10,545 bases of DNA. Source: a virus. This document shows positions 5-10,431 of this stretch, in pieces (within the stretch, counting starts at the first letter, position 1; the number at the start of each line of letters is the position of its first letter). The notes beneath the pieces were generated by a model. The model saw only the letters and a list, made by a program, of their open reading frames with translations. It made no database searches and had not been told where the DNA came from. The stretch lies in UHGV virus genome UHGV-1711741, one strand, 5' to 3'. Position numbers and translations under genes: made by a program.

Positions 5-244
5 ATGGAAGGTTTAATTGAAGCTATTAAATCAAACGACCTCGTAGCCGCTCGTAAATTATTTGCTGAAGCCATGGCTGCAAGAACGACTGATTTAATT
101 AAAGAAGAAAAAATCGCTATCGCTCGTAATTTCTTAATCGAAGGTGAAGAACCTGATGACGAGGATGATGACGAAGACGAAGATAGTGATGATAAAGACG
201 ACAAAAAAGACAAAGACTCTGACGAAGACGAGGATGATGAATAA
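5..244 (+). CDS. 67: Prohead core protein gp67 (T4 gene 67-like); may be 5'-truncated by the window edge
   Basis: 79-aa ORF whose C-terminal ~30 residues are almost entirely Asp/Glu ([28 protein letters not shown]). Sits immediately upstream of the 68-21-22-23 cluster, as in T4. Stop overlaps the next start (TAATG at 242-246). The ATG at 5 is only 4 nt from the window start, so the true start could lie upstream. Confidence 0.75.
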
Positions 245-669
245 TGCTTCTGATCCCTGAAACTCATGAATTAGTTCTCGAGAATGTCGAAGCACTTATT
301 CCTGAAGCACAGGGTCGCTTTGACGAATTGTCTTCTGCTTTAAATAAAGACGATATAAATACAATTGTCGAGAATATGCTTGATGATGAAACTGATTTAG
401 CGGTTGCATTAGCTTCTATTAATGAAAATATGCCGTTAAATGAATTTATCGTTAAACATGTTTCTGCCCGTGGTGAAATTACTCGCACTAAAGATCGCAA
501 AACCCGCGAACGTAATGCATTTCAAACTACCGGGTTGTCTAAAGCAAAACGTAGACAAATTGCTCGTAAAGCTACCAAAACGAAGATTGCCAATCCAGCA
601 GGTCAATCTCGTGCTCAGCGTAAGCGTAAAAAAGCTCTTAAACGCCGTAAAGCATTAGGATTAAGCTAA
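244..669 (+). CDS. 68: Prohead core protein gp68 (T4 gene 68-like)
   Basis: 141-aa ORF, the length I recall for T4 gp68. Strongly basic Lys/Arg-rich C-terminal tail. Start overlaps the gp67 stop and its own stop overlaps the gp21 start (TAATG at 667-671), indicating translational coupling. Confidence 0.75.
354..361 (+). promoter_or_regulatory. Internal TATAAATA motif within gene 68 (possible late promoter or chance match)
   Basis: Exact 8-mer, but about 307 nt upstream of the next start and inside a coding region. Roughly one chance hit per strand is expected in AT-rich DNA of this length. Confidence 0.2.
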
Positions 670-1307
670 TGAATGAACCCCAATTACTAATTGAAACTTG
701 GGGTCAACCTGGCGAAATTATTGATGGCGTACCAATGCTTGAATCTCATGATGGAAAAGACTTAGGTTTAAAACCGGGTTTATACATCGAAGGAATATTC
801 ATGCAAGCGGAAGTCGTCAATAGAAATAAACGTCTTTATCCAAAACGTATATTAGAAAAAGCGGTAAAAGACTATATTAATGAGCAAGTTTTAACTAAAC
901 AAGCTCTCGGAGAATTAAATCATCCTCCACGCGCTAATGTTGACCCGATGCAAGCCGCTATCATTATAGAAGATATGTGGTGGAAAGGAAATGACGTATA
1001 CGGACGAGCTCGTGTTATTGAAGGTGACCATGGTCCTGGAGATAAATTAGCAGCTAATATTCGTGCCGGATGGATTCCAGGAGTTTCTTCTCGTGGATTA
1101 GGTTCATTGACTGACACAAATAAAGGTTATCGTATCGTAAACGAAGGATTCAAATTAACTGTAGGTGTTGATGCAGTATGGGGTCCAAGTGCTCCAGATG
1201 CATGGGTAACTCCTAAGGAAATTACCGAATCACAGACGGCGGAAGCCGATACAAGTGCCGATGACGCCTATATGGCTCTCGCAGAGGCCATGAAAAAAGC
1301 GTTATAA
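669..1307 (+). CDS. 21: Prohead core protein and protease gp21 (T4 prohead serine protease)
   Basis: 212-aa ORF. His85 (ELNHPP) and Ser140 (IPGVSSRGLGS) fall exactly where I recall the catalytic His/Ser of T4 gp21. Position between 68 and 22 matches T4 synteny. Confidence 0.9.
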   Translation: MNEPQLLIETWGQPGEIIDGVPMLESHDGKDLGLKPGLYIEGIFMQAEVVNRNKRLYPKRILEKAVKDYINEQVLTKQALGELNHPPRANVDPMQAAIIIEDMWWKGNDVYGRARVIEGDHGPGDKLAANIRAGWIPGVSSRGLGSLTDTNKGYRIVNEGFKLTVGVDAVWGPSAPDAWVTPKEITESQTAEADTSADDAYMALAEAMKKAL

Positions 1308-1310
1308 ATA
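1303..1310 (+). promoter_or_regulatory. T4-type late promoter motif TATAAATA for gene 22
   Basis: Exact TATAAATA overlapping the gp21 stop codon (1305-1307), ending 27 nt upstream of the gene 22 ATG. Confidence 0.7.
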
Positions 1311-1337: not shown

Positions 1338-2147
1338 ATGCTTAAAGAACAACTGATTGCTGAAGCGCAAAAAATTGATGCTTCCGTTGCTCTTGATAGT
1401 ATTTTCGAATCAGTTAATATTTCTCCGGAAGCAAAAGAAACTTTCGGCACTGTATTCGAAGCTACCGTCAAGCAGCACGCCGTTAAATTAGCTGAATCTC
1501 ATATCGCTAAAATTGCTGAAAAAGCAGAAGAAGAAGTAGAAAAAAATAAAGAAGAAGCCGAAGAAAAAGCTGAGAAGAAAATCGCTGAGCAAGCTTCTAA
1601 ATTCATCGACCATCTTGCGAAAGAATGGCTCGCTGAAAATAAATTAGCAGTTGATAAAGGCATCAAAGCCGAACTGTTTGAATCCATGCTTGGTGGATTA
1701 AAAGAGCTCTTTGTTGAACACAACGTTGTTGTTCCAGAAGAATCAGTTGATGTTGTAGCTGAAATGGAAGAAGAGCTGCAAGAACATAAAGAAGAATCAG
1801 CTCGTCTGTTCGAAGAACTCAATAAGCGTGACGCATATATCAATTATGTGCAGCGTGAAGTGGCATTGAGCGAAAGTACTAAAGATCTGACTGAGTCTCA
1901 AAAAGAAAAAGTCTCTGCTCTGGTCGAAGGTATGGATTATTCAGATGCATTCTCAAGTAAATTGAGTGCCATCGTAGAAATGGTGAAGAAGTCTAATAAA
2001 GATGAAAGCACTATTACTGAGGGTATAAATACTCCTGATACTGAAGCAGCCGGACTGAATTTCGTCACTGAAGCTGTAGAAGATAAAGCTGCACCTGGTG
2101 CAGAAGATATTGTAAGTGTATATGCGAAAGTCGCATCTCGTTTCTAA
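1338..2147 (+). CDS. 22: Prohead scaffolding core protein gp22
   Basis: 269-aa ORF. Highly charged Glu/Lys/Ala-rich sequence typical of a coiled-coil scaffold (AEKAEEEVEKNKEEAEEKAEKKIAEQ). Preceded by TATAAATA and a Shine-Dalgarno (AGGAC). Lies directly upstream of the major capsid gene. Confidence 0.85.
   Translation: MLKEQLIAEAQKIDASVALDSIFESVNISPEAKETFGTVFEATVKQHAVKLAESHIAKIAEKAEEEVEKNKEEAEEKAEKKIAEQASKFIDHLAKEWLAENKLAVDKGIKAELFESMLGGLKELFVEHNVVVPEESVDVVAEMEEELQEHKEESARLFEELNKRDAYINYVQREVALSESTKDLTESQKEKVSALVEGMDYSDAFSSKLSAIVEMVKKSNKDESTITEGINTPDTEAAGLNFVTEAVEDKAAPGAEDIVSVYAKVASRF
2024..2031 (+). promoter_or_regulatory. T4-type late promoter motif TATAAATA inside the 3' end of gene 22 (candidate gene 23 promoter)
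   Basis: Exact TATAAATA 134 nt upstream of the gene 23 ATG. No closer consensus motif is present. A chance occurrence in AT-rich DNA is possible. Confidence 0.5.
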
Positions 2148-2165: not shown

Positions 2166-3731
2166 ATGACTATCAAAACTAAAGCTGAACTTTTGAACAA
2201 ATGGAAGCCATTACTGGAAGGTGAAGATTTACCGGAAATTGCTAATAGCAAACAAGCGATTATCGCTAAAATCTTTGAAAACCAGGAAAAAGATTTCCAG
2301 ACAGCTCCAGAGTACAAAGACGAAAAAATCGCTCAGGCGTTCGGTTCTTTCTTAACAGAAGCTGAAATCGGTGTTGACCACGGTTACAACGCTACTAACA
2401 TTGCTGCTGGTCAGACTTCTGGCGCAGTAACTCAGATTGGCCCAGCTGTTATGGGTATGGTACGTCGTGCTATTCCTAACCTGATTGCTTTCGATATTTG
2501 CGGTGTTCAGCCGATGAACAGCCCGACTGGCCAGGTATTCGCATTGCGCGCAGTATATGGTAAAGACCCAATCGCTTCCGGTGCTAAAGAAGCATTCCAC
2601 CCAATGTATGGTCCAGATGCAATGTTCTCTGGTCAGGGTGCTGCTAAGAAATTCGCTGCTTTGAAAGCAAGTGATACTCTTAAAGTTGGAACTATTTACA
2701 CCCACTTCTTCCAGGAAACTGGTACTGTATATCTGCAAGCTACAGAAGTTAAGAAAATTGATACTAGTGCATCTGACGCAGCTAAATTAGATGCTGAAAT
2801 TAAGAAACAAATGGAAGCTGGTGTACTGGTAGAAATCGCTGAAGGTATGGCTACTTCTATCGCTGAACTTCAGGAAGGTTTCAACGGTTCTACCGATAAC
2901 CCATGGAATGAAATGGGCTTCCGTATCGATAAACAAGTTATCGAAGCTAAATCTCGTCAGCTGAAAGCTGCTTACTCTATCGAATTAGCACAAGACCTCC
3001 GCGCTGTTCACGGTATGGATGCTGATGCTGAACTGTCTGGTATTCTGGCTACCGAAATTATGCTGGAAATCAACCGCGAAGTTGTTGATTGGATTAACTA
3101 CTCCGCTCAGGTTGGTAAATCTGGTATGACCCTGACTCCGGGTTCTAAAGCTGGTGTATTTGACTTCCAGGACCCAATCGATATTCGTGGTGCTCGCTGG
3201 GCAGGTGAATCCTTTAAAGCTCTGTTGTTCCAGATTGACAAAGAAGCAGTTGAAATTGCTCGTCAGACTGGTCGCGGCGAAGGTAACTTCATTATCGCTT
3301 CCCGTAACGTAGTTAACGTTCTGGCTTCAGTTGATACCGGCATTTCTTATGCTGCACAAGGTCTGGCTACTGGCTTTAACACTGATACTACCAAGTCAGT
3401 ATTTGCTGGTGTTCTGGGTGGTAAATACCGTGTATATATCGACCAGTATGCTAAACAGGATTATTTCACCGTAGGTTATAAAGGTCCGAACGAAATGGAT
3501 GCTGGTATTTACTATGCTCCATATGTAGCTCTGACTCCGCTGCGTGGTTCTGATCCGAAGAACTTCCAACCGGTAATGGGATTCAAAACTCGTTACGGTA
3601 TCGGTATCAACCCATTTGCAGAATCCGCTGCTCAGGCTCCGGCTTCTCGCATCCAGAGCGGTATGCCTTCTATTCTGAATAGCCTTGGTAAAAACGCTTA
3701 CTTCCGCCGTGTATATGTTAAAGGTATCTAA
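2166..3731 (+). CDS. 23: Major capsid protein gp23 precursor (HK97-fold)
   Basis: 521-aa ORF beginning MTIKTKAELLNKWKPLLEGE, which I recognise as the T4 gp23 N-terminus. The motif L63-T64-E65 sits at the position of the known gp21 maturation cleavage after Glu65. Codon usage is GC-richer than the neighbours, as expected for a highly expressed gene. Followed by a strong hairpin terminator. Confidence 0.95.
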   Translation: MTIKTKAELLNKWKPLLEGEDLPEIANSKQAIIAKIFENQEKDFQTAPEYKDEKIAQAFGSFLTEAEIGVDHGYNATNIAAGQTSGAVTQIGPAVMGMVRRAIPNLIAFDICGVQPMNSPTGQVFALRAVYGKDPIASGAKEAFHPMYGPDAMFSGQGAAKKFAALKASDTLKVGTIYTHFFQETGTVYLQATEVKKIDTSASDAAKLDAEIKKQMEAGVLVEIAEGMATSIAELQEGFNGSTDNPWNEMGFRIDKQVIEAKSRQLKAAYSIELAQDLRAVHGMDADAELSGILATEIMLEINREVVDWINYSAQVGKSGMTLTPGSKAGVFDFQDPIDIRGARWAGESFKALLFQIDKEAVEIARQTGRGEGNFIIASRNVVNVLASVDTGISYAAQGLATGFNTDTTKSVFAGVLGGKYRVYIDQYAKQDYFTVGYKGPNEMDAGIYYAPYVALTPLRGSDPKNFQPVMGFKTRYGIGINPFAESAAQAPASRIQSGMPSILNSLGKNAYFRRVYVKGI

Positions 3732-3744
3732 TCTTTGACGATTT

Positions 3745-3776
3745 AAGGGACCTTCGGGTCCCTTTAGTTGTTTTTA
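3745..3776 (+). terminator. Rho-independent terminator after gene 23
   Basis: Perfect 8-bp stem AAGGGACC / GGTCCCTT closed by a UUCG tetraloop (3753-3756), followed by a T-rich tract (TAGTTGTTTTTA). Confidence 0.8.
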
Positions 3777-3779
3777 TGG

Positions 3780-3787
3780 TATAAATA
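3780..3787 (+). promoter_or_regulatory. T4-type late promoter motif TATAAATA for gene 24
   Basis: Exact TATAAATA immediately after the gene 23 terminator hairpin, ending 27 nt upstream of the gene 24 ATG. Confidence 0.75.
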
Positions 3788-3814
3788 AATCATATAAACT
3801 GAAAGGAAAGCGCA

Positions 3815-5098
3815 ATGGCTAAAATCAACGAACTTCTGCGCGAATCAACCACAACGAATAGCAACTCAATCGGTCGCCCAAATCTCGTTGCTTTGACTCG
3901 CGCTACCACTAAATTAATATATTCTGACATTGTAGCAACGCAAAGAACTAATCAACCTGTTGCTGCTTTTTATGGTATCAAATACCTTAACCCGGATAAC
4001 GAATTTACATTTAAAACTGGTGCTACTTACGCCGGCGAAGCTGGGTATGTAGACCGAGAACAAATCACAGAATTAACAGAAGAGTCTAAATTAACTCTCA
4101 ATAAAGGTGATTTATTCAAATATAATAATATCGTTTATAAAGTATTAGAAGATACACCATTTGCTGATATTGAAGAAAGCGATTTAGAATTAGCTCTTCA
4201 GATTGCAATTGTTCTTTTAAAAGTTCGTCTATTTTCTGATGCTGCAGTAACAAGCAAATTTGAAAGCTCTGATAGCGAAATTGCGGATGCTAGATTCCAG
4301 ATTAATAAATGGCAAACCGCAGTTAAATCTCGTAAACTTAAAACTGGCATCACAGTCGAATTAGCACAAGATTTAGAAGCAAATGGATTCGATGCTCCTA
4401 ATTTCTTGGAAGATTTGCTTGCAACCGAAATGGCAGATGAAATCAATAAAGATATTCTGCAGTCTTTGATTACAGTGTCAAAACGCTATAAAGTTACAGG
4501 AATTACTGATACTGGATTCATTGATTTGAGTTATGCATCTGCGCCTGAAGCTGGTCGTTCATTATACCGAATGGTGTGTGAAATGGTTTCACATATCCAG
4601 AAAGAATCAACTTATACAGCAACGTTCTGTGTTGCTTCAGCTCGTGCCGCTGCGATTCTTGCTGCATCAGGTTGGTTAAAACATAAACCAGAAGATGACA
4701 AATATCTTTCACAAAATGCCTACGGGTTCTTAGCTAATGGTTTACCGCTTTATTGCGATACCAACAGCCCATTAGATTATGTAATCGTTGGCGTAGTAGA
4801 AAATATCGGTGAAAAAGAAATTGTTGGATCAATTTTCTATGCTCCGTATACAGAAGGTCTTGACTTAGATGACCCTGAACATGTAGGTGCATTTAAAGTT
4901 GTAGTTGATCCAGAAAGTTTGCAGCCATCTATCGGTTTATTAGTTAGATATGCTTTATCTGCAAATCCTTACACTGTAGCAAAAGATGAAAAAGAAGCAA
5001 GAGTAATTGATGGTGGAGACATGGATAAAATGGCGGGTCGTTCAGATTTGTCTGTTTTATTAGGTGTTAAGCTACCAAAAATTATCATTGATGAATAA
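3815..5098 (+). CDS. 24: Capsid vertex protein gp24 precursor (paralog of gp23)
   Basis: 427-aa ORF with clear internal similarity to gp23 (shared ELAQDL block and surrounding residues). TATAAATA lies 27 nt upstream of the ATG, with an AAGGA Shine-Dalgarno. N-terminal L8-R9-E10 fits the L/I-x-E protease cleavage motif. Confidence 0.9.
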   Translation: MAKINELLRESTTTNSNSIGRPNLVALTRATTKLIYSDIVATQRTNQPVAAFYGIKYLNPDNEFTFKTGATYAGEAGYVDREQITELTEESKLTLNKGDLFKYNNIVYKVLEDTPFADIEESDLELALQIAIVLLKVRLFSDAAVTSKFESSDSEIADARFQINKWQTAVKSRKLKTGITVELAQDLEANGFDAPNFLEDLLATEMADEINKDILQSLITVSKRYKVTGITDTGFIDLSYASAPEAGRSLYRMVCEMVSHIQKESTYTATFCVASARAAAILAASGWLKHKPEDDKYLSQNAYGFLANGLPLYCDTNSPLDYVIVGVVENIGEKEIVGSIFYAPYTEGLDLDDPEHVGAFKVVVDPESLQPSIGLLVRYALSANPYTVAKDEKEARVIDGGDMDKMAGRSDLSVLLGVKLPKIIIDE

Positions 5099-6711: not shown

Positions 6712-7563
6712 TTATGGATAGGTATAGATGATACCAGTTTCTAAAGCAGTTTTATGAATGATGTATCCATTACGCGATTCTTGAACATCAACTTCTTGAT
6801 AGTCTTTCATCATCTTCTGAAGAGTGTAACGATGCAGGTAGTATTTACTGTCTGGATCTTCAGTTTTCCAATCTTTACCTTCTTCGGTCATTTTTTGGAT
6901 TTCATCCATAACCCACCAACCGCACCAGATATAAGCTGAAGTACGATGTGGAAGAGGATGAACATAAGGCAATTCACCTTCTGGTTCCGGAGCAACTTTA
7001 TCAGTTACCTGAACTTGGCCTGTTGCTTTAACTGTTTTACTATCATAGTCGGTTGCTGTAACGACAGCAGTAACTTCAATAGTTTGACTTCCAATAGATG
7101 AGGTGTCAACGGTGTATACGTTAGTTGATCCTTCTACAGGAGAACCGTCGACGTGCCATTGATACGTAGCAGATGCACCTGGCGGCTGTGAATCTAAGGC
7201 AGCAGTAAATTGAACTGGAGTTCCAATTACTCCAGCTGAAGGACTATTAGGAGTTACTGTTATTGTAGTAGTCTGTGTCTTATTTTGAACTGTGATAGTT
7301 GTCGTAGTTTCTGCTGTTTCAGGTTCAGCTTCAGATTCTGGAACTGTATTTGTTGCAACCACCTTAATAGTCTTTTGACCTGCAGGTCCTTTTAGTACAT
7401 AGCTAAAAGTTGCTTCAGCTCCATCCTGTGGAACATTATCTACACTCCAAGCATAGGTAATAGTTCCACCTTCAGTTTGACCACTGGGTGCAGCAGTAAA
7501 CTGCTTGGTTTCATCAATAACTCCTGTTGGGGTTTTAGGAGTTATATCAACTGTAAAAGTCAT
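6712..7563 (-). CDS. hoc: Hoc, highly immunogenic outer capsid protein (Ig-like decoration protein), short 283-aa form
   Basis: N-terminus MTFTVDITPKTPTGVIDETKQFTA. Two internally repeated Ig-like modules (TYAWSVD vs TYQWHVD; GVIDETKQFTA vs GVIGTPVQFTA), Thr/Val-rich beta-strand composition, and a conserved C-terminal capsid-binding region (YIWCGWWVMDEIQKMTEEGKDWK). Start lies 9 nt downstream of the inh stop. Confidence 0.85.
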   Translation of the reverse strand: MTFTVDITPKTPTGVIDETKQFTAAPSGQTEGGTITYAWSVDNVPQDGAEATFSYVLKGPAGQKTIKVVATNTVPESEAEPETAETTTTITVQNKTQTTTITVTPNSPSAGVIGTPVQFTAALDSQPPGASATYQWHVDGSPVEGSTNVYTVDTSSIGSQTIEVTAVVTATDYDSKTVKATGQVQVTDKVAPEPEGELPYVHPLPHRTSAYIWCGWWVMDEIQKMTEEGKDWKTEDPDSKYYLHRYTLQKMMKDYQEVDVQESRNGYIIHKTALETGIIYTYP

Positions 7564-7572
7564 AAGTTATCC

Positions 7573-8253
7573 TTATTTTAATGTTACGAAAGAAGAATTG
7601 CGTGTTTCACGAATTAGAACTGATCCATCACGATTAATGTAGTAAATTAAGCTAAATAACGTTTGGTGCGCCGACGCGTGTTCAAAACTAGTTGGGTGAG
7701 ATTTCCAATCAGGAGTTTCAGCAATCCATTGATAAATCCACCAAGGAACAGTACAGAATCCTGGATTTTTTCCAATCAGCTGAAGATTCGGACTAAAGTT
7801 TTCCGGAAGAGTAAATACAGACGGCTTTTCAGATTCAATAATCTCAGCTACAGCCTGTTCAAATTTTTCTTCAACAAATGGAGTATCTTCAATCAAAACA
7901 TCGGTATTTTCAGGAATTTTATCTGTTTCTACTACTTCAATTTTAATGTCAGATTTAACCGGAGAATCAATCAAAAGTGCTGCTTCTGGATTGACTTCTT
8001 CATCGTCATATTTTAACCCCTCTGCAGCATCAGCAGCATCAATTAAGTCTTTAATAGATAACCCATCAGTCTCCGGCATAGGTTCACTAGCGAGCTTCTG
8101 GAGAGCTTCTTCAATATCATTAACGATATTATCAAAAGATTTATTCTTTTTGACCTTTATACCAAACTGTTCAGCATATTCAGCTAATTTAGCTTTAGCT
8201 TCTTTATTATCATCAAGAGCCTTCAGCTCTGCAATATAATCTTTATCTATCAT
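7573..8253 (-). CDS. inh: Inh-like protein (inhibitor of the prohead protease gp21)
   Basis: 226-aa ORF directly upstream of hoc on the minus strand, as I recall for T4 inh. Good Shine-Dalgarno (GAGGA) before the ATG. Acidic, non-repetitive protein. Assignment rests on synteny and recalled size only. Confidence 0.65.
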   Translation of the reverse strand: MIDKDYIAELKALDDNKEAKAKLAEYAEQFGIKVKKNKSFDNIVNDIEEALQKLASEPMPETDGLSIKDLIDAADAAEGLKYDDEEVNPEAALLIDSPVKSDIKIEVVETDKIPENTDVLIEDTPFVEEKFEQAVAEIIESEKPSVFTLPENFSPNLQLIGKNPGFCTVPWWIYQWIAETPDWKSHPTSFEHASAHQTLFSLIYYINRDGSVLIRETRNSSFVTLK

Positions 8254-8266
8254 AATATTTCCTCAG

Positions 8267-8274
8267 TATAAATA
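8267..8274 (+). promoter_or_regulatory. T4-type late promoter motif TATAAATA upstream of the homing endonuclease gene
   Basis: Exact TATAAATA in the 49-bp inh-segE spacer, ending 28 nt upstream of the segE ATG. Confidence 0.6.
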
Positions 8275-8280
8275 TAGATA

Positions 8281-8288
8281 TATTTATT
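8281..8288 (-). promoter_or_regulatory. Candidate variant late promoter (AATAAATA on the minus strand) for inh-hoc
   Basis: Plus strand reads TATTTATT, i.e. AATAAATA on the minus strand, one mismatch from consensus. It ends 27 nt upstream of the inh ATG, the same spacing as the gene 22 and gene 24 promoters. Confidence 0.4.
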
Positions 8289-8302
8289 ACTCGGAAAATA
8301 GT

Positions 8303-8920
8303 ATGTACCACTTTGTATATGAAACAACAAATCTAATAAATGGTAAAAAGTATATAGGAAAACACTCTACTGATGACTTGAATGATGGTTACCTTGGTTC
8401 CGGTAAGGCAATTCAGCAGGCTATAAAGAAATATGGTGAAAACAATTTCTCTAGAACAATACTAAAAGAGTTTAAAACTTCCGAAGAAGCGTACATGTAT
8501 GAAGAAGAAATTATAACTCCTGAAATAATAAAAAGCAAAAATTATTATAATATGAAACCTGGTGGAATTGGTGGAATTGTTATGACTACAGAGGTTATAG
8601 CAAAGATGAAAGAATCTTCCGCTAAGAGATTTGAAAACTCACCGGGCACGGTATTAGGTACAACTTGTTACACTAATGGAACTAAAAATATTTTTATTAA
8701 ACCTGGAGAACTTGTTCCAGAAGGATTTGTAAAAGGGATGGTTCATCCTAATAGAAAGTCCAGAAAAGGATGTAAAGTCAAACCGACTACCACAGGAACT
8801 TTTTGGGTCAATAATGGCGTAATAAATAAATTAATACAACCAGACGGTATTATTCCCGACGGATTTATTAAAGGTCGTCTCATGAAAAGAGATTCTAAAG
8901 GCAAATTTAGTAAGGCATAA
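8303..8920 (+). CDS. segE: GIY-YIG homing endonuclease (SegE-like free-standing endonuclease)
   Basis: 205-aa ORF. N-terminal GIY-YIG module (F-V-Y at residues 4-6, K-Y-I-G at 16-19, about 10-residue spacing). C-terminal half has two tandem ~22-aa repeats ending in P-[ED]-G-F-[VI]-K-G, typical of modular DNA-binding regions in phage homing endonucleases. Very AT-rich. Sits between inh and uvsW, where I recall T4 segE. Confidence 0.8.
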   Translation: MYHFVYETTNLINGKKYIGKHSTDDLNDGYLGSGKAIQQAIKKYGENNFSRTILKEFKTSEEAYMYEEEIITPEIIKSKNYYNMKPGGIGGIVMTTEVIAKMKESSAKRFENSPGTVLGTTCYTNGTKNIFIKPGELVPEGFVKGMVHPNRKSRKGCKVKPTTTGTFWVNNGVINKLIQPDGIIPDGFIKGRLMKRDSKGKFSKA

Positions 8921-8922
8921 TT

Positions 8923-10431
8923 ATGGATATTAAAGTACATTTTCACGACTTCAGTCATGTACGCATCGATTGTGAAGAGAGCACGTTCCACGAATTAAGA
9001 GATTTCTTTTCGTTTGAGGCCGATGGATATAGATTTAACCCTCGCTTCAGATATGGCAACTGGGATGGACGAATTCGTCTTTTAGATTATAATCGCCTTC
9101 TTCCATTCGGTTTAGTCGGGCAAATTAAAAAGTTCTGCGATAACTTTGGCTATAAAGCCTGGATTGACCCACAGATTAACGAAAAAGAAGAATTATCAAG
9201 AAAAGATTTTGATGAATGGCTTTCTAAATTAGAAATCTATTCAGGAAATAAAAGAATTGAACCGCATTGGTATCAAAAAGATGCAGTGTTCGAAGGATTA
9301 GTTAATCGTCGTAGAATTCTTAATCTTCCAACATCCGCAGGTAAATCTTTAATTCAAGCTTTGCTTGCACGTTATTATTTGGAAAATTATGAAGGTAAAA
9401 TTCTTATCATTGTTCCAACAACTGCTCTAACAACTCAGATGGCTGATGACTTCGTTGACTATCGTTTATTCAGTCATGCAATGATAAAGAAAATTGGTGG
9501 CGGAGCATCAAAAGATGATAAATATAAAAATGATGCACCAGTCGTTGTTGGTACATGGCAAACTGTAGTAAAACAACCGAAAGAATGGTTCTCACAGTTT
9601 GGAATGATGATGAATGATGAATGCCATCTTGCTACAGGAAAAAGTATTTCATCTATCATATCAGGTTTAAATAACTGCATGTTCAAATTTGGTCTATCTG
9701 GTTCATTACGTGATGGCAAAGCCAATATCATGCAGTATGTTGGAATGTTTGGTGAAATATTTAAGCCAGTAACGACTTCTAAGTTAATGGAAGATGGACA
9801 AGTAACTGAGCTAAAAATTAATAGTATTTTTCTTCGCTATCCCGATGAGTTCACTACTAAATTAAAGGGAAAAACTTATCAAGAAGAAATAAAAATTATT
9901 ACGGGGCTTAGTAAAAGAAATAAATGGATCGCTAAATTGGCTATTAAGCTTGCACAAAAAGATGAAAACGCTTTTGTCATGTTTAAACATGTATCACATG
10001 GTAAAGCTATTTTCGATTTAATTAAAAATGAATACGATAAAGTTTATTACGTATCAGGGGAAGTTGATACCGAAACCCGCAATATAATGAAAACCTTAGC
10101 TGAAAATGGTAAAGGAATAATTATAGTAGCTAGTTATGGTGTATTTTCTACTGGTATTTCAGTTAAAAATCTGCATCACGTTGTTTTAGCGCACGGTGTT
10201 AAATCAAAAATCATTGTATTACAAACAATCGGTCGTGTATTACGTAAGCATGGTTCTAAAACAATCGCAACAGTCTGGGACCTCATAGATGACTGTGGTG
10301 TCAAGCCAAAATCTGCTAATACTAAAAAGAAATATGTTCACTTGAACTATCTTTTAAAACACGGCATTGATCGTATTCAGCGCTACGCAGATGAAAAATT
10401 TAATTACGTAATGAAAACAGTTAATTTATAA
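8923..10431 (+). CDS. uvsW: UvsW DNA/RNA helicase (SF2, DExH box), as a 502-aa ORF
   Basis: Walker A motif LPTSAGKS with Lys141 (the residue I recall as the T4 UvsW ATPase lysine). DECH motif II (MMNDECHLA). Motif VI-like QTIGRVLR. Start is 2 nt after the segE stop. Confidence 0.9.
   Translation: MDIKVHFHDFSHVRIDCEESTFHELRDFFSFEADGYRFNPRFRYGNWDGRIRLLDYNRLLPFGLVGQIKKFCDNFGYKAWIDPQINEKEELSRKDFDEWLSKLEIYSGNKRIEPHWYQKDAVFEGLVNRRRILNLPTSAGKSLIQALLARYYLENYEGKILIIVPTTALTTQMADDFVDYRLFSHAMIKKIGGGASKDDKYKNDAPVVVGTWQTVVKQPKEWFSQFGMMMNDECHLATGKSISSIISGLNNCMFKFGLSGSLRDGKANIMQYVGMFGEIFKPVTTSKLMEDGQVTELKINSIFLRYPDEFTTKLKGKTYQEEIKIITGLSKRNKWIAKLAIKLAQKDENAFVMFKHVSHGKAIFDLIKNEYDKVYYVSGEVDTETRNIMKTLAENGKGIIIVASYGVFSTGISVKNLHHVVLAHGVKSKIIVLQTIGRVLRKHGSKTIATVWDLIDDCGVKPKSANTKKKYVHLNYLLKHGIDRIQRYADEKFNYVMKTVNL

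Follow-up and report, generated by a model that had tools for sequence, protein, structure and literature searches.

Late transcription of T4 starts at promoters with an 8-bp box placed at −13 to −6 (PMC1524935). Recognition of this box by the phage sigma factor gp55 takes place on the melted non-template strand, at −12, −9 and −8 (PMC7892883). Fifty late sites are listed for T4: 32 of them are perfect, an A in place of T at −13 occurs in 9 of the 50 and is the commonest variant, and an A+T-rich segment lies downstream of the box, with the caveat that activity in vivo has been demonstrated for not all 50 sites (PMC2988020). Our own count of exact TATAAATA in the T4 genome also gave 32. For the genes of interest here, a late promoter has been named upstream of T4 inh, segE is described as transcribed from a promoter in its own upstream non-coding region (PMC2988022), and a late promoter is also given for the expression of UvsW (PMC3016281, with reference to Derr and Kreuzer 1990). 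Time-resolved RNA-seq and proteomics place T4 inh, segE and uvsW among the genes with late RNA and late protein, and the three proteins make their appearance together at late time points (PMC9697503, supplements). Late expression of the endonuclease is already an experimental fact for T4, and the late timing of the three genes is taken from this published work throughout.

The closest described promoter pair is that of T4 itself, where the late promoters of inh (112035-112042, minus strand) and of segE/uvsW (112021-112028, plus strand) serve the same genes, in the same orientation and at the same distances, as at the locus presented here. Two other T4 junctions are comparable. The gene 4/53 junction (77349-77371) has the same face-to-face, interleaved layout, with the arrangement TATAAATA-N7-TATTTATA in a 47-bp spacer and distances of 28 and 26 nt to the ATGs. 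The gene 26/51 junction likewise has two late boxes in a 50-bp divergent spacer, with late structural genes leading away in both directions, but its boxes are truly back-to-back, overlap by 4 bp (TATTTATAAATA) and lie only 21 and 17 nt from the start codons. The overlapping divergent late promoters of gene 26/51 were reportedly described by Scarlato et al. (1989, Virology 171:475).

The DNA analysed here, called the window below, is the whole stretch of 10,545 nt from virus genome UHGV-1711741. From the open reading frame listing and megablast it is a Tequatrovirus head-gene block, with the following genes:

244-669, plus strand: gene 68
669-1307, plus strand: gene 21
1338-2147, plus strand: gene 22
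2166-3731, plus strand: gene 23
3815-5098, plus strand: gene 24
between gene 24 and hoc, minus strand: rnlB, 24.2 and 24.3
6712-7563, minus strand: hoc
7573-8253, minus strand: inh, the gp21 prohead protease inhibitor, 226 aa
8303-8920, plus strand: segE, a GIY-YIG homing endonuclease, 205 aa
8923-10431, plus strand: uvsW, helicase, 502 aa

In megablast, the region 7400-9100 matched T4 at 97.5% identity and other isolates at up to 98.4%; a shorter stretch of the window reached 99.3% identity to phage ACG-C40. Genes 55, 33 and 45 lie outside the window and are present in T4. Apart from the divergence of about 2.5% in this region, the window differs from T4 in two places. The segD homing endonuclease, which T4 has between genes 23 and 24, is absent here (3732-3814), and the 83-bp spacer has nothing but the late box of gene 24 and, at about 3745-3775, a G+C hairpin with a T-run. 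Hoc has 283 aa compared with 376 aa in T4, and from the BLASTP alignment it is one Ig-like repeat shorter, apparently through recombination between repeats. The uvsW product has 502 aa in the window, 503 aa in T2, RB32 and Lutter, and 587 aa as annotated in the T4 record AF158101.6. We take the 587-aa version to reflect probably an old fusion of uvsW and uvsW.1 in that record rather than a real difference.

The feature under study is the divergent spacer between inh and segE, which in our alignment A1 was identical to that of T4 base for base. Its elements are:

8254-8302, no strand: inh/segE divergent spacer, 49 bp, corresponding to T4 112008-112056
8261-8264, minus strand: inh Shine-Dalgarno sequence GAGG, 7 nt before the ATG
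8267-8274, plus strand: late box TATAAATA, consensus, positions −13 to −6, 28 nt (8275-8302) before the segE ATG
8275-8280, no strand: inter-box segment TAGATA, 6 bp, holding both predicted transcription starts
8288-8281, minus strand: late box AATAAATA, variant with A at −13, 27 nt (8280-8254) before the inh ATG
8293-8297, plus strand: weak segE Shine-Dalgarno sequence GGAAA, with the GGA core at 8293-8295, 7 nt before the ATG

The start codon of inh, read on the complement, occupies 8251-8253 and the segE ATG 8303-8305. Between them the spacer is used completely: 13 nt, a box, 6 nt, a box and 14 nt accommodate two late boxes and two ribosome-binding sites, with an A+T content of about 80%. 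The plus-strand letters at 8281-8288 are TATTTATT, which read on the minus strand give AATAAATA. The 14 bp downstream of the boxes are TAGATATATTTATT and TATCTATATTTATA, each with 13 A/T out of 14, because in each case the partner box sits there. Among relatives a GAGG- or GAGA-like element is kept at the place of the inh Shine-Dalgarno sequence. Scans of 8254-8302 found neither a sigma-70-like promoter nor a terminator. Each box thus combines an accepted gp55-type sequence with an A+T-rich downstream segment and an orientation towards its gene, with no sigma-70 site nearby.

The sequence-only reading had described exactly these two motifs, at 28 nt from segE and 27 nt from inh, as a pair of divergent late promoters, and had concluded that the homing endonuclease is expressed late and divergently from the protease inhibitor. 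Both motifs were confirmed letter by letter. The interpretation as two late promoters is well supported by the identity of the spacer with that of T4, by the T4 literature and by retention of the pair in every relative that we examined, and the late, divergent expression of the endonuclease agrees with the late RNA and late protein classes of segE and inh in T4. GenBank records carry promoter features on both boxes in phage Lutter and on the plus-strand box in fPS-90 (annotated as 'predicted late promoter'); the T4 record AF158101.6 has no promoter features. Taken as a whole, the explanation of the spacer as a compact, bidirectional T4-type late-transcription unit is very probably correct. The plus box at 8267-8274 should drive segE and, by read-through, uvsW; the minus box at 8281-8288 should drive inh and probably also hoc. 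The feature is a textbook T4 late-promoter pair that was already known, in a strongly conserved layout. The window thus carries the standard late-transcription signals of T4, and its value lies mainly in serving as a positive control for the reading of such motifs. As an example of a point-mutated late box we may give the change from TATAAATA to TATGAATA.

Further late boxes are distributed over the window:

354-361, plus strand: exact TATAAATA inside gene 68, 307 nt before gene 21
1303-1310, plus strand: gene 22 late box, exact TATAAATA, with a gap of 27 nt to the ATG at 1338
2024-2031, plus strand: P23, which serves as the reference among T4 late promoters; exact TATAAATA within the gene 22 coding sequence, with a gap of 134 nt to the gene 23 ATG
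3780-3787, plus strand: gene 24 late box, exact TATAAATA, with a gap of 27 nt to the ATG at 3815
8821-8828, plus strand: AATAAATA within the 3'-terminal part of segE, with a gap of 94 nt to the uvsW ATG

The P23 oligonucleotide sequence published in PMC7892883 matches the window at 2024-2031. The window has five copies of exact TATAAATA, all of them on the plus strand, against an expectation of 1.12 from shuffles; only one of 200 shuffles reached five. AATAAATA taken alone was not enriched, with two copies in the window against 1.71 expected, and its occurrence at 8281-8288 is non-random because of its position, its orientation and its conservation. One might argue that in A+T-rich intergenic DNA such motifs are chance matches, since the spacer is about 80% A+T and AATAAATA does occur at its chance frequency. 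The five copies of TATAAATA, however, always lie on the coding strand of late genes. Across T4, 25 of 47 [T/A]ATAAATA sites (53%) are found at most 40 nt upstream of a start codon on the same strand, compared with 6.4% of composition-matched 8-mers. Furthermore, both boxes are kept in every relative while their flanks diverge, which already contradicts a chance origin. We consider the probability of chance matches to be negligible.

A more restricted doubt concerns the minus box. In principle, only the plus box could be functional, with AATAAATA as a by-product of its A+T-rich downstream region and inh transcribed from elsewhere. The missing enrichment of AATAAATA would fit with such an arrangement, as would the fact that not all listed T4 late sites have been proven active (PMC2988020). 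Against this, the box on the inh side is a perfect TATAAATA at the same place in other lineages, and A at −13 is the commonest accepted variant of the T4 box (PMC2988020). In addition, the minus strand upstream of inh runs antisense to segE and uvsW and has no late box nearer to inh; in T4, the next lies at 114694. RNA and protein of inh are both late in T4 (PMC9697503), and a review names a late promoter upstream of inh (PMC2988022). A silent minus box is therefore very unlikely, and we retain the reading of two working promoters.

The geometry of the pair needed correction. The sequence-only reading had called the promoters back-to-back, whereas the plus box lies to the left of the minus box. 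The boxes thus face each other across 6 bp (TAGATA, 8275-8280) and the two promoters are interleaved. From the placement of the box at −13 to −6 (PMC1524935), transcription is predicted to start at A8280 (plus strand; T4 position 112034) and, for the minus strand, at the A opposite 8275 (T4 position 112029). The predicted leaders have 23 nt on the segE side and 22 nt on the inh side, and each box occupies positions +2 to +9 of the other promoter's predicted transcript, that is to say, it lies in its leader. A dRNA-seq study of T4 with 150 start sites is available (bioRxiv 10.1101/2024.04.04.588121); the starts given here for this spacer are predicted from the box position.

In the mechanism that we propose, E. 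coli RNA polymerase with gp55, aided by gp33 and the DNA-loaded sliding clamp gp45, would recognise either box and initiate about 6 nt downstream of it. As for T4-type late promoters in general, no −35 element would be needed, and activity would depend on DNA replication as well as on gp55, gp33 and the clamp. The plus box would give rise to the 23-nt leader from A8280 for segE, followed by uvsW through read-through, and the minus box to the 22-nt inh leader from the A opposite 8275. Each box would at the same time supply the A+T-rich melting region for the opposing promoter. The open complexes would overlap, sharing roughly 8274-8281, so that only one polymerase at a time could be accommodated on the unit, and simultaneous occupation of both promoters appears implausible.

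Conservation of the pair extends well beyond the close relatives of T4. The unit [T/A]ATAAATA-N6-TATTTAT[A/T] was present in one Mosigvirus, one Gelderlandvirus and one Klebsiella phage. Among 19 diverged IMG/VR loci, found with an Inh profile and encoding Inh relatives of 50-100% identity, all 19 had [T/A]ATAAATA-N6-TATTTATA directly upstream of inh. In other genera the box on the inh side is a perfect TATAAATA. The inter-box segment was 6 bp long in 19 of the 19 loci and variable in sequence (TATCTA, TAACTA, TAGTTA, CATTTA, CAAACA, CATACA, CAATCA and CATCTA). In all 19 loci the segment follows a YA-NN-YA pattern. Both promoters thereby have a pyrimidine-purine step at their predicted −1/+1 positions, in indirect support of the predicted start sites. 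The constant length of 6 bp is weak evidence in itself, given that indels in such a place are rare anyway.

The gene 4/53 junction offers a useful comparison. There, too, the pair of boxes was kept in relatives (27 loci examined, L032-L058), and the boxes were found 6, 7 or 10 bp apart or in back-to-back overlap as TATTTATAAATA. The inter-box distance at gene 4/53, 7 bp in T4, is therefore variable in relatives, whereas at inh/uvsW it was 6 bp at every locus examined. An invariant 6-bp spacing as a general rule for such pairs was rejected on the basis of the gene 4/53 junction.

Another observation concerned the origin of the promoter upstream of segE. Among 534 matching phage records, 159 carried segE. 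In most records that lack it, the match spans 885 nt instead of 1501 nt and inh and uvsW are direct divergent neighbours. About 340 of these segE-less relatives have the same box pair in the gap from inh to uvsW, among them T2, RB32, Lutter and fPS-90, whose inh-uvsW spacer of 50 bp holds both boxes. Compared with segE-less phages, alignment A1 showed identity from inh through 8290 and divergence from 8291 on. The DNA specific to segE thus starts at 8291, directly behind both boxes, and the segE Shine-Dalgarno sequence falls within it. From this boundary it follows that the segE cassette lies between the uvsW start codon and a late promoter of uvsW that was already present. The comparison of sequences identifies the plus promoter as the ancestral uvsW late promoter, which by this evidence did not evolve for the endonuclease. 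The segE cassette, which brings its own weak ribosome-binding site, is inserted just downstream of this promoter, and the endonuclease thereby inherits late timing. What has been called the segE promoter is a captured uvsW late promoter, which accounts for a late endonuclease and is useful to know in the annotation of T4-like phages.

The timing of UvsW matters because the helicase switches replication away from origins. It would survive the insertion because of read-through from the plus box and because of a conserved box embedded in segE. The latter, at 8821-8828, probably acts as a second, internal late promoter of uvsW. Three diverged segE homologues retain it over their I-N-K codons (ATA AAT Aaa), and all three have A or T at the third codon position just before it. 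In relatives the embedded box was found at 2029-2036 of locus L010, again 94 nt before the uvsW ATG, and, on the reverse complement, at 1851-1858 of locus L017, 58 nt before the stop codon of the segE homologue. This agrees with the statement on embedded promoters in a published review (PMC2988022). Free-standing homing endonucleases are known to be expressed from promoters of their host genes, as with segG before gene 32, and segE likewise precedes its target gene. The likeness goes further, with segE lying in a late transcription unit and a promoter of the target gene embedded in the segE coding sequence. A difference lies in the classification, since the review assigns segE to those endonucleases whose upstream non-coding region holds a promoter (PMC2988022). 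The comparison with segE-less phages shows that the promoter upstream of segE is older than the insertion.

The segE-less relatives also bear on the inverted symmetry of the spacer. The two boxes form part of a perfect 9-nt inverted repeat (8268-8276 and 8279-8287, ATAAATATA-N2-TATATTTAT), and the whole spacer is an imperfect palindrome. Such a repeat could mainly be the binding site of a dimeric protein, be it an operator for autorepression by SegE or the target of another late regulator, with its likeness to promoters being secondary. There is precedent in the intron-encoded endonucleases of T4, such as I-TevI, which repress their own late or middle promoters via overlapping operators (PMC2988022). 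The identical palindrome is found, however, in about 340 relatives without segE, and cannot be a SegE operator in origin; we rejected this candidate. Moreover, an inverted repeat is the automatic outcome of two opposed copies of one motif, and between genera only the 8-bp boxes and the −1/+1 steps are kept, whereas the centre varies. Taken together, a primary role as a dimer-binding site is most unlikely, and a pair of opposed late promoters is the reading that we follow below.

The distance between box and start codon deserves separate consideration. In addition to the two distances at the spacer, the sequence-only reading had pointed to the same 27 nt at genes 22 (1303-1310) and 24 (3780-3787), which is correct, and had proposed from these four genes a fixed distance reflecting a constrained leader. 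The boxes at 354-361 and 2024-2031, absent from that account, break the pattern. The 25 proximal sites in T4 covered a range of 13-35 nt, with distances of 13-18 nt at e, 19, t, 51 and I-TevII, and P23 lies 134 nt from its gene. Late genes thus do not share one common distance. There is, however, a preferred and evolutionarily kept one: 12 of the 25 T4 sites lie at 26-29 nt, compared with 10.5% of the controls. For this band, a binomial test, chosen post hoc, gave 2.6e-6 and a scan statistic against a uniform distribution over 13-35 nt gave p = 0.007. In relatives the box lay 28-30 nt from the start codon of uvsW or segE and 27-34 nt from that of inh; for the pair between genes 4 and 53 the values were 27-30 nt for gene 53, with a single outlier of 42 nt at a TTG start, and 25-30 nt for gene 4. 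The constrained leader consequently holds as a preference and fails as a fixed length.

This preference need not reflect a function. If two ribosome-binding sites and two boxes are fitted into a divergent spacer of minimal length, 27-28 nt might result from the packing by itself: the spacer is indeed used completely, genes in T4 are densely packed, and the T4 distribution has a sharp upper edge, with only 2 of the 25 sites above 29 nt. Distances of 27-29 nt, however, are also found at non-divergent late promoters of T4 (genes 22, 24, 18, 20, alt and soc), and the working distances of 13-18 nt show that a box can lie much closer than 27-28 nt. Between genes 4 and 53, furthermore, the distance stays at 25-30 nt regardless of whether 6, 7 or 10 bp separate the boxes or they overlap back-to-back. 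The distance is thus better conserved than the geometry of the pair, which on these comparisons argues for some selection on leader length. We regard packing alone as a possible but rather doubtful explanation. If leader length is indeed selected, the reason may be that a distance of about 27-28 nt leaves just enough room in the leader for a complete ribosome-binding site, as about 21-25 nt would fit an A/U-rich 5' part, a Shine-Dalgarno sequence and its spacing. In practice, the preference for about 26-30 nt may be used as a prior in the prediction of promoters and start codons in T4-like phages.

A more speculative possibility arises from the symmetry of the complete spacer. The junction may be a symmetric module of Shine-Dalgarno sequence, box, N6, box and Shine-Dalgarno sequence, which would combine a selected distance of about 25-30 nt across Straboviridae with insulation of translation in both directions. 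RNA that reads through from either side would fold such that the downstream Shine-Dalgarno sequence pairs with the complement of that of the other gene, whereas RNAs initiated inside the palindrome would lack the 5' arm and stay open. For read-through RNA of both strands (8225-8330) the folding energy was predicted at −12 to −14.5 kcal/mol for the window; 16 relatives gave −7.7 to −17.3 kcal/mol, while RNA from the predicted late starts was unstructured (0 to −3.7 kcal/mol). Compared with shuffles the read-through fold was only modestly better, with z = −1.1 and −1.7 in the window, and the pairing results automatically from the symmetry of the spacer. On the uvsW side of the T2 type there is no clear Shine-Dalgarno sequence. 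Between uvsY.-2 and uvsW of T4, no terminator turned up in a simple scan. For T4 e and I-TevI it has been reported that longer read-through RNA folds over the Shine-Dalgarno sequence and that late-initiated RNA does not (PMC3014915). The module would resemble this escape from an inhibitory mRNA hairpin but would act in both directions; unlike at e and I-TevI, the hairpin is here only predicted and weak to moderate, and the read-through RNA is hypothetical. On balance we consider such a module unlikely. If it did exist, it would confine synthesis of Inh, SegE and UvsW to late times despite early-strand transcripts crossing the junction.

A minor observation concerned the border of genes 21 and 22. 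The stop codon TAA of gene 21 (1305-1307) lies inside the gene 22 box at 1303-1310. The same arrangement, a stop codon TAA within the TATAAATA of the next gene, occurs in T4 at 17/18 (98500-98507) and at 38/t (160196-160203), so that at 21/22, 17/18 and 38/t one 8-mer doubles as stop codon and promoter.
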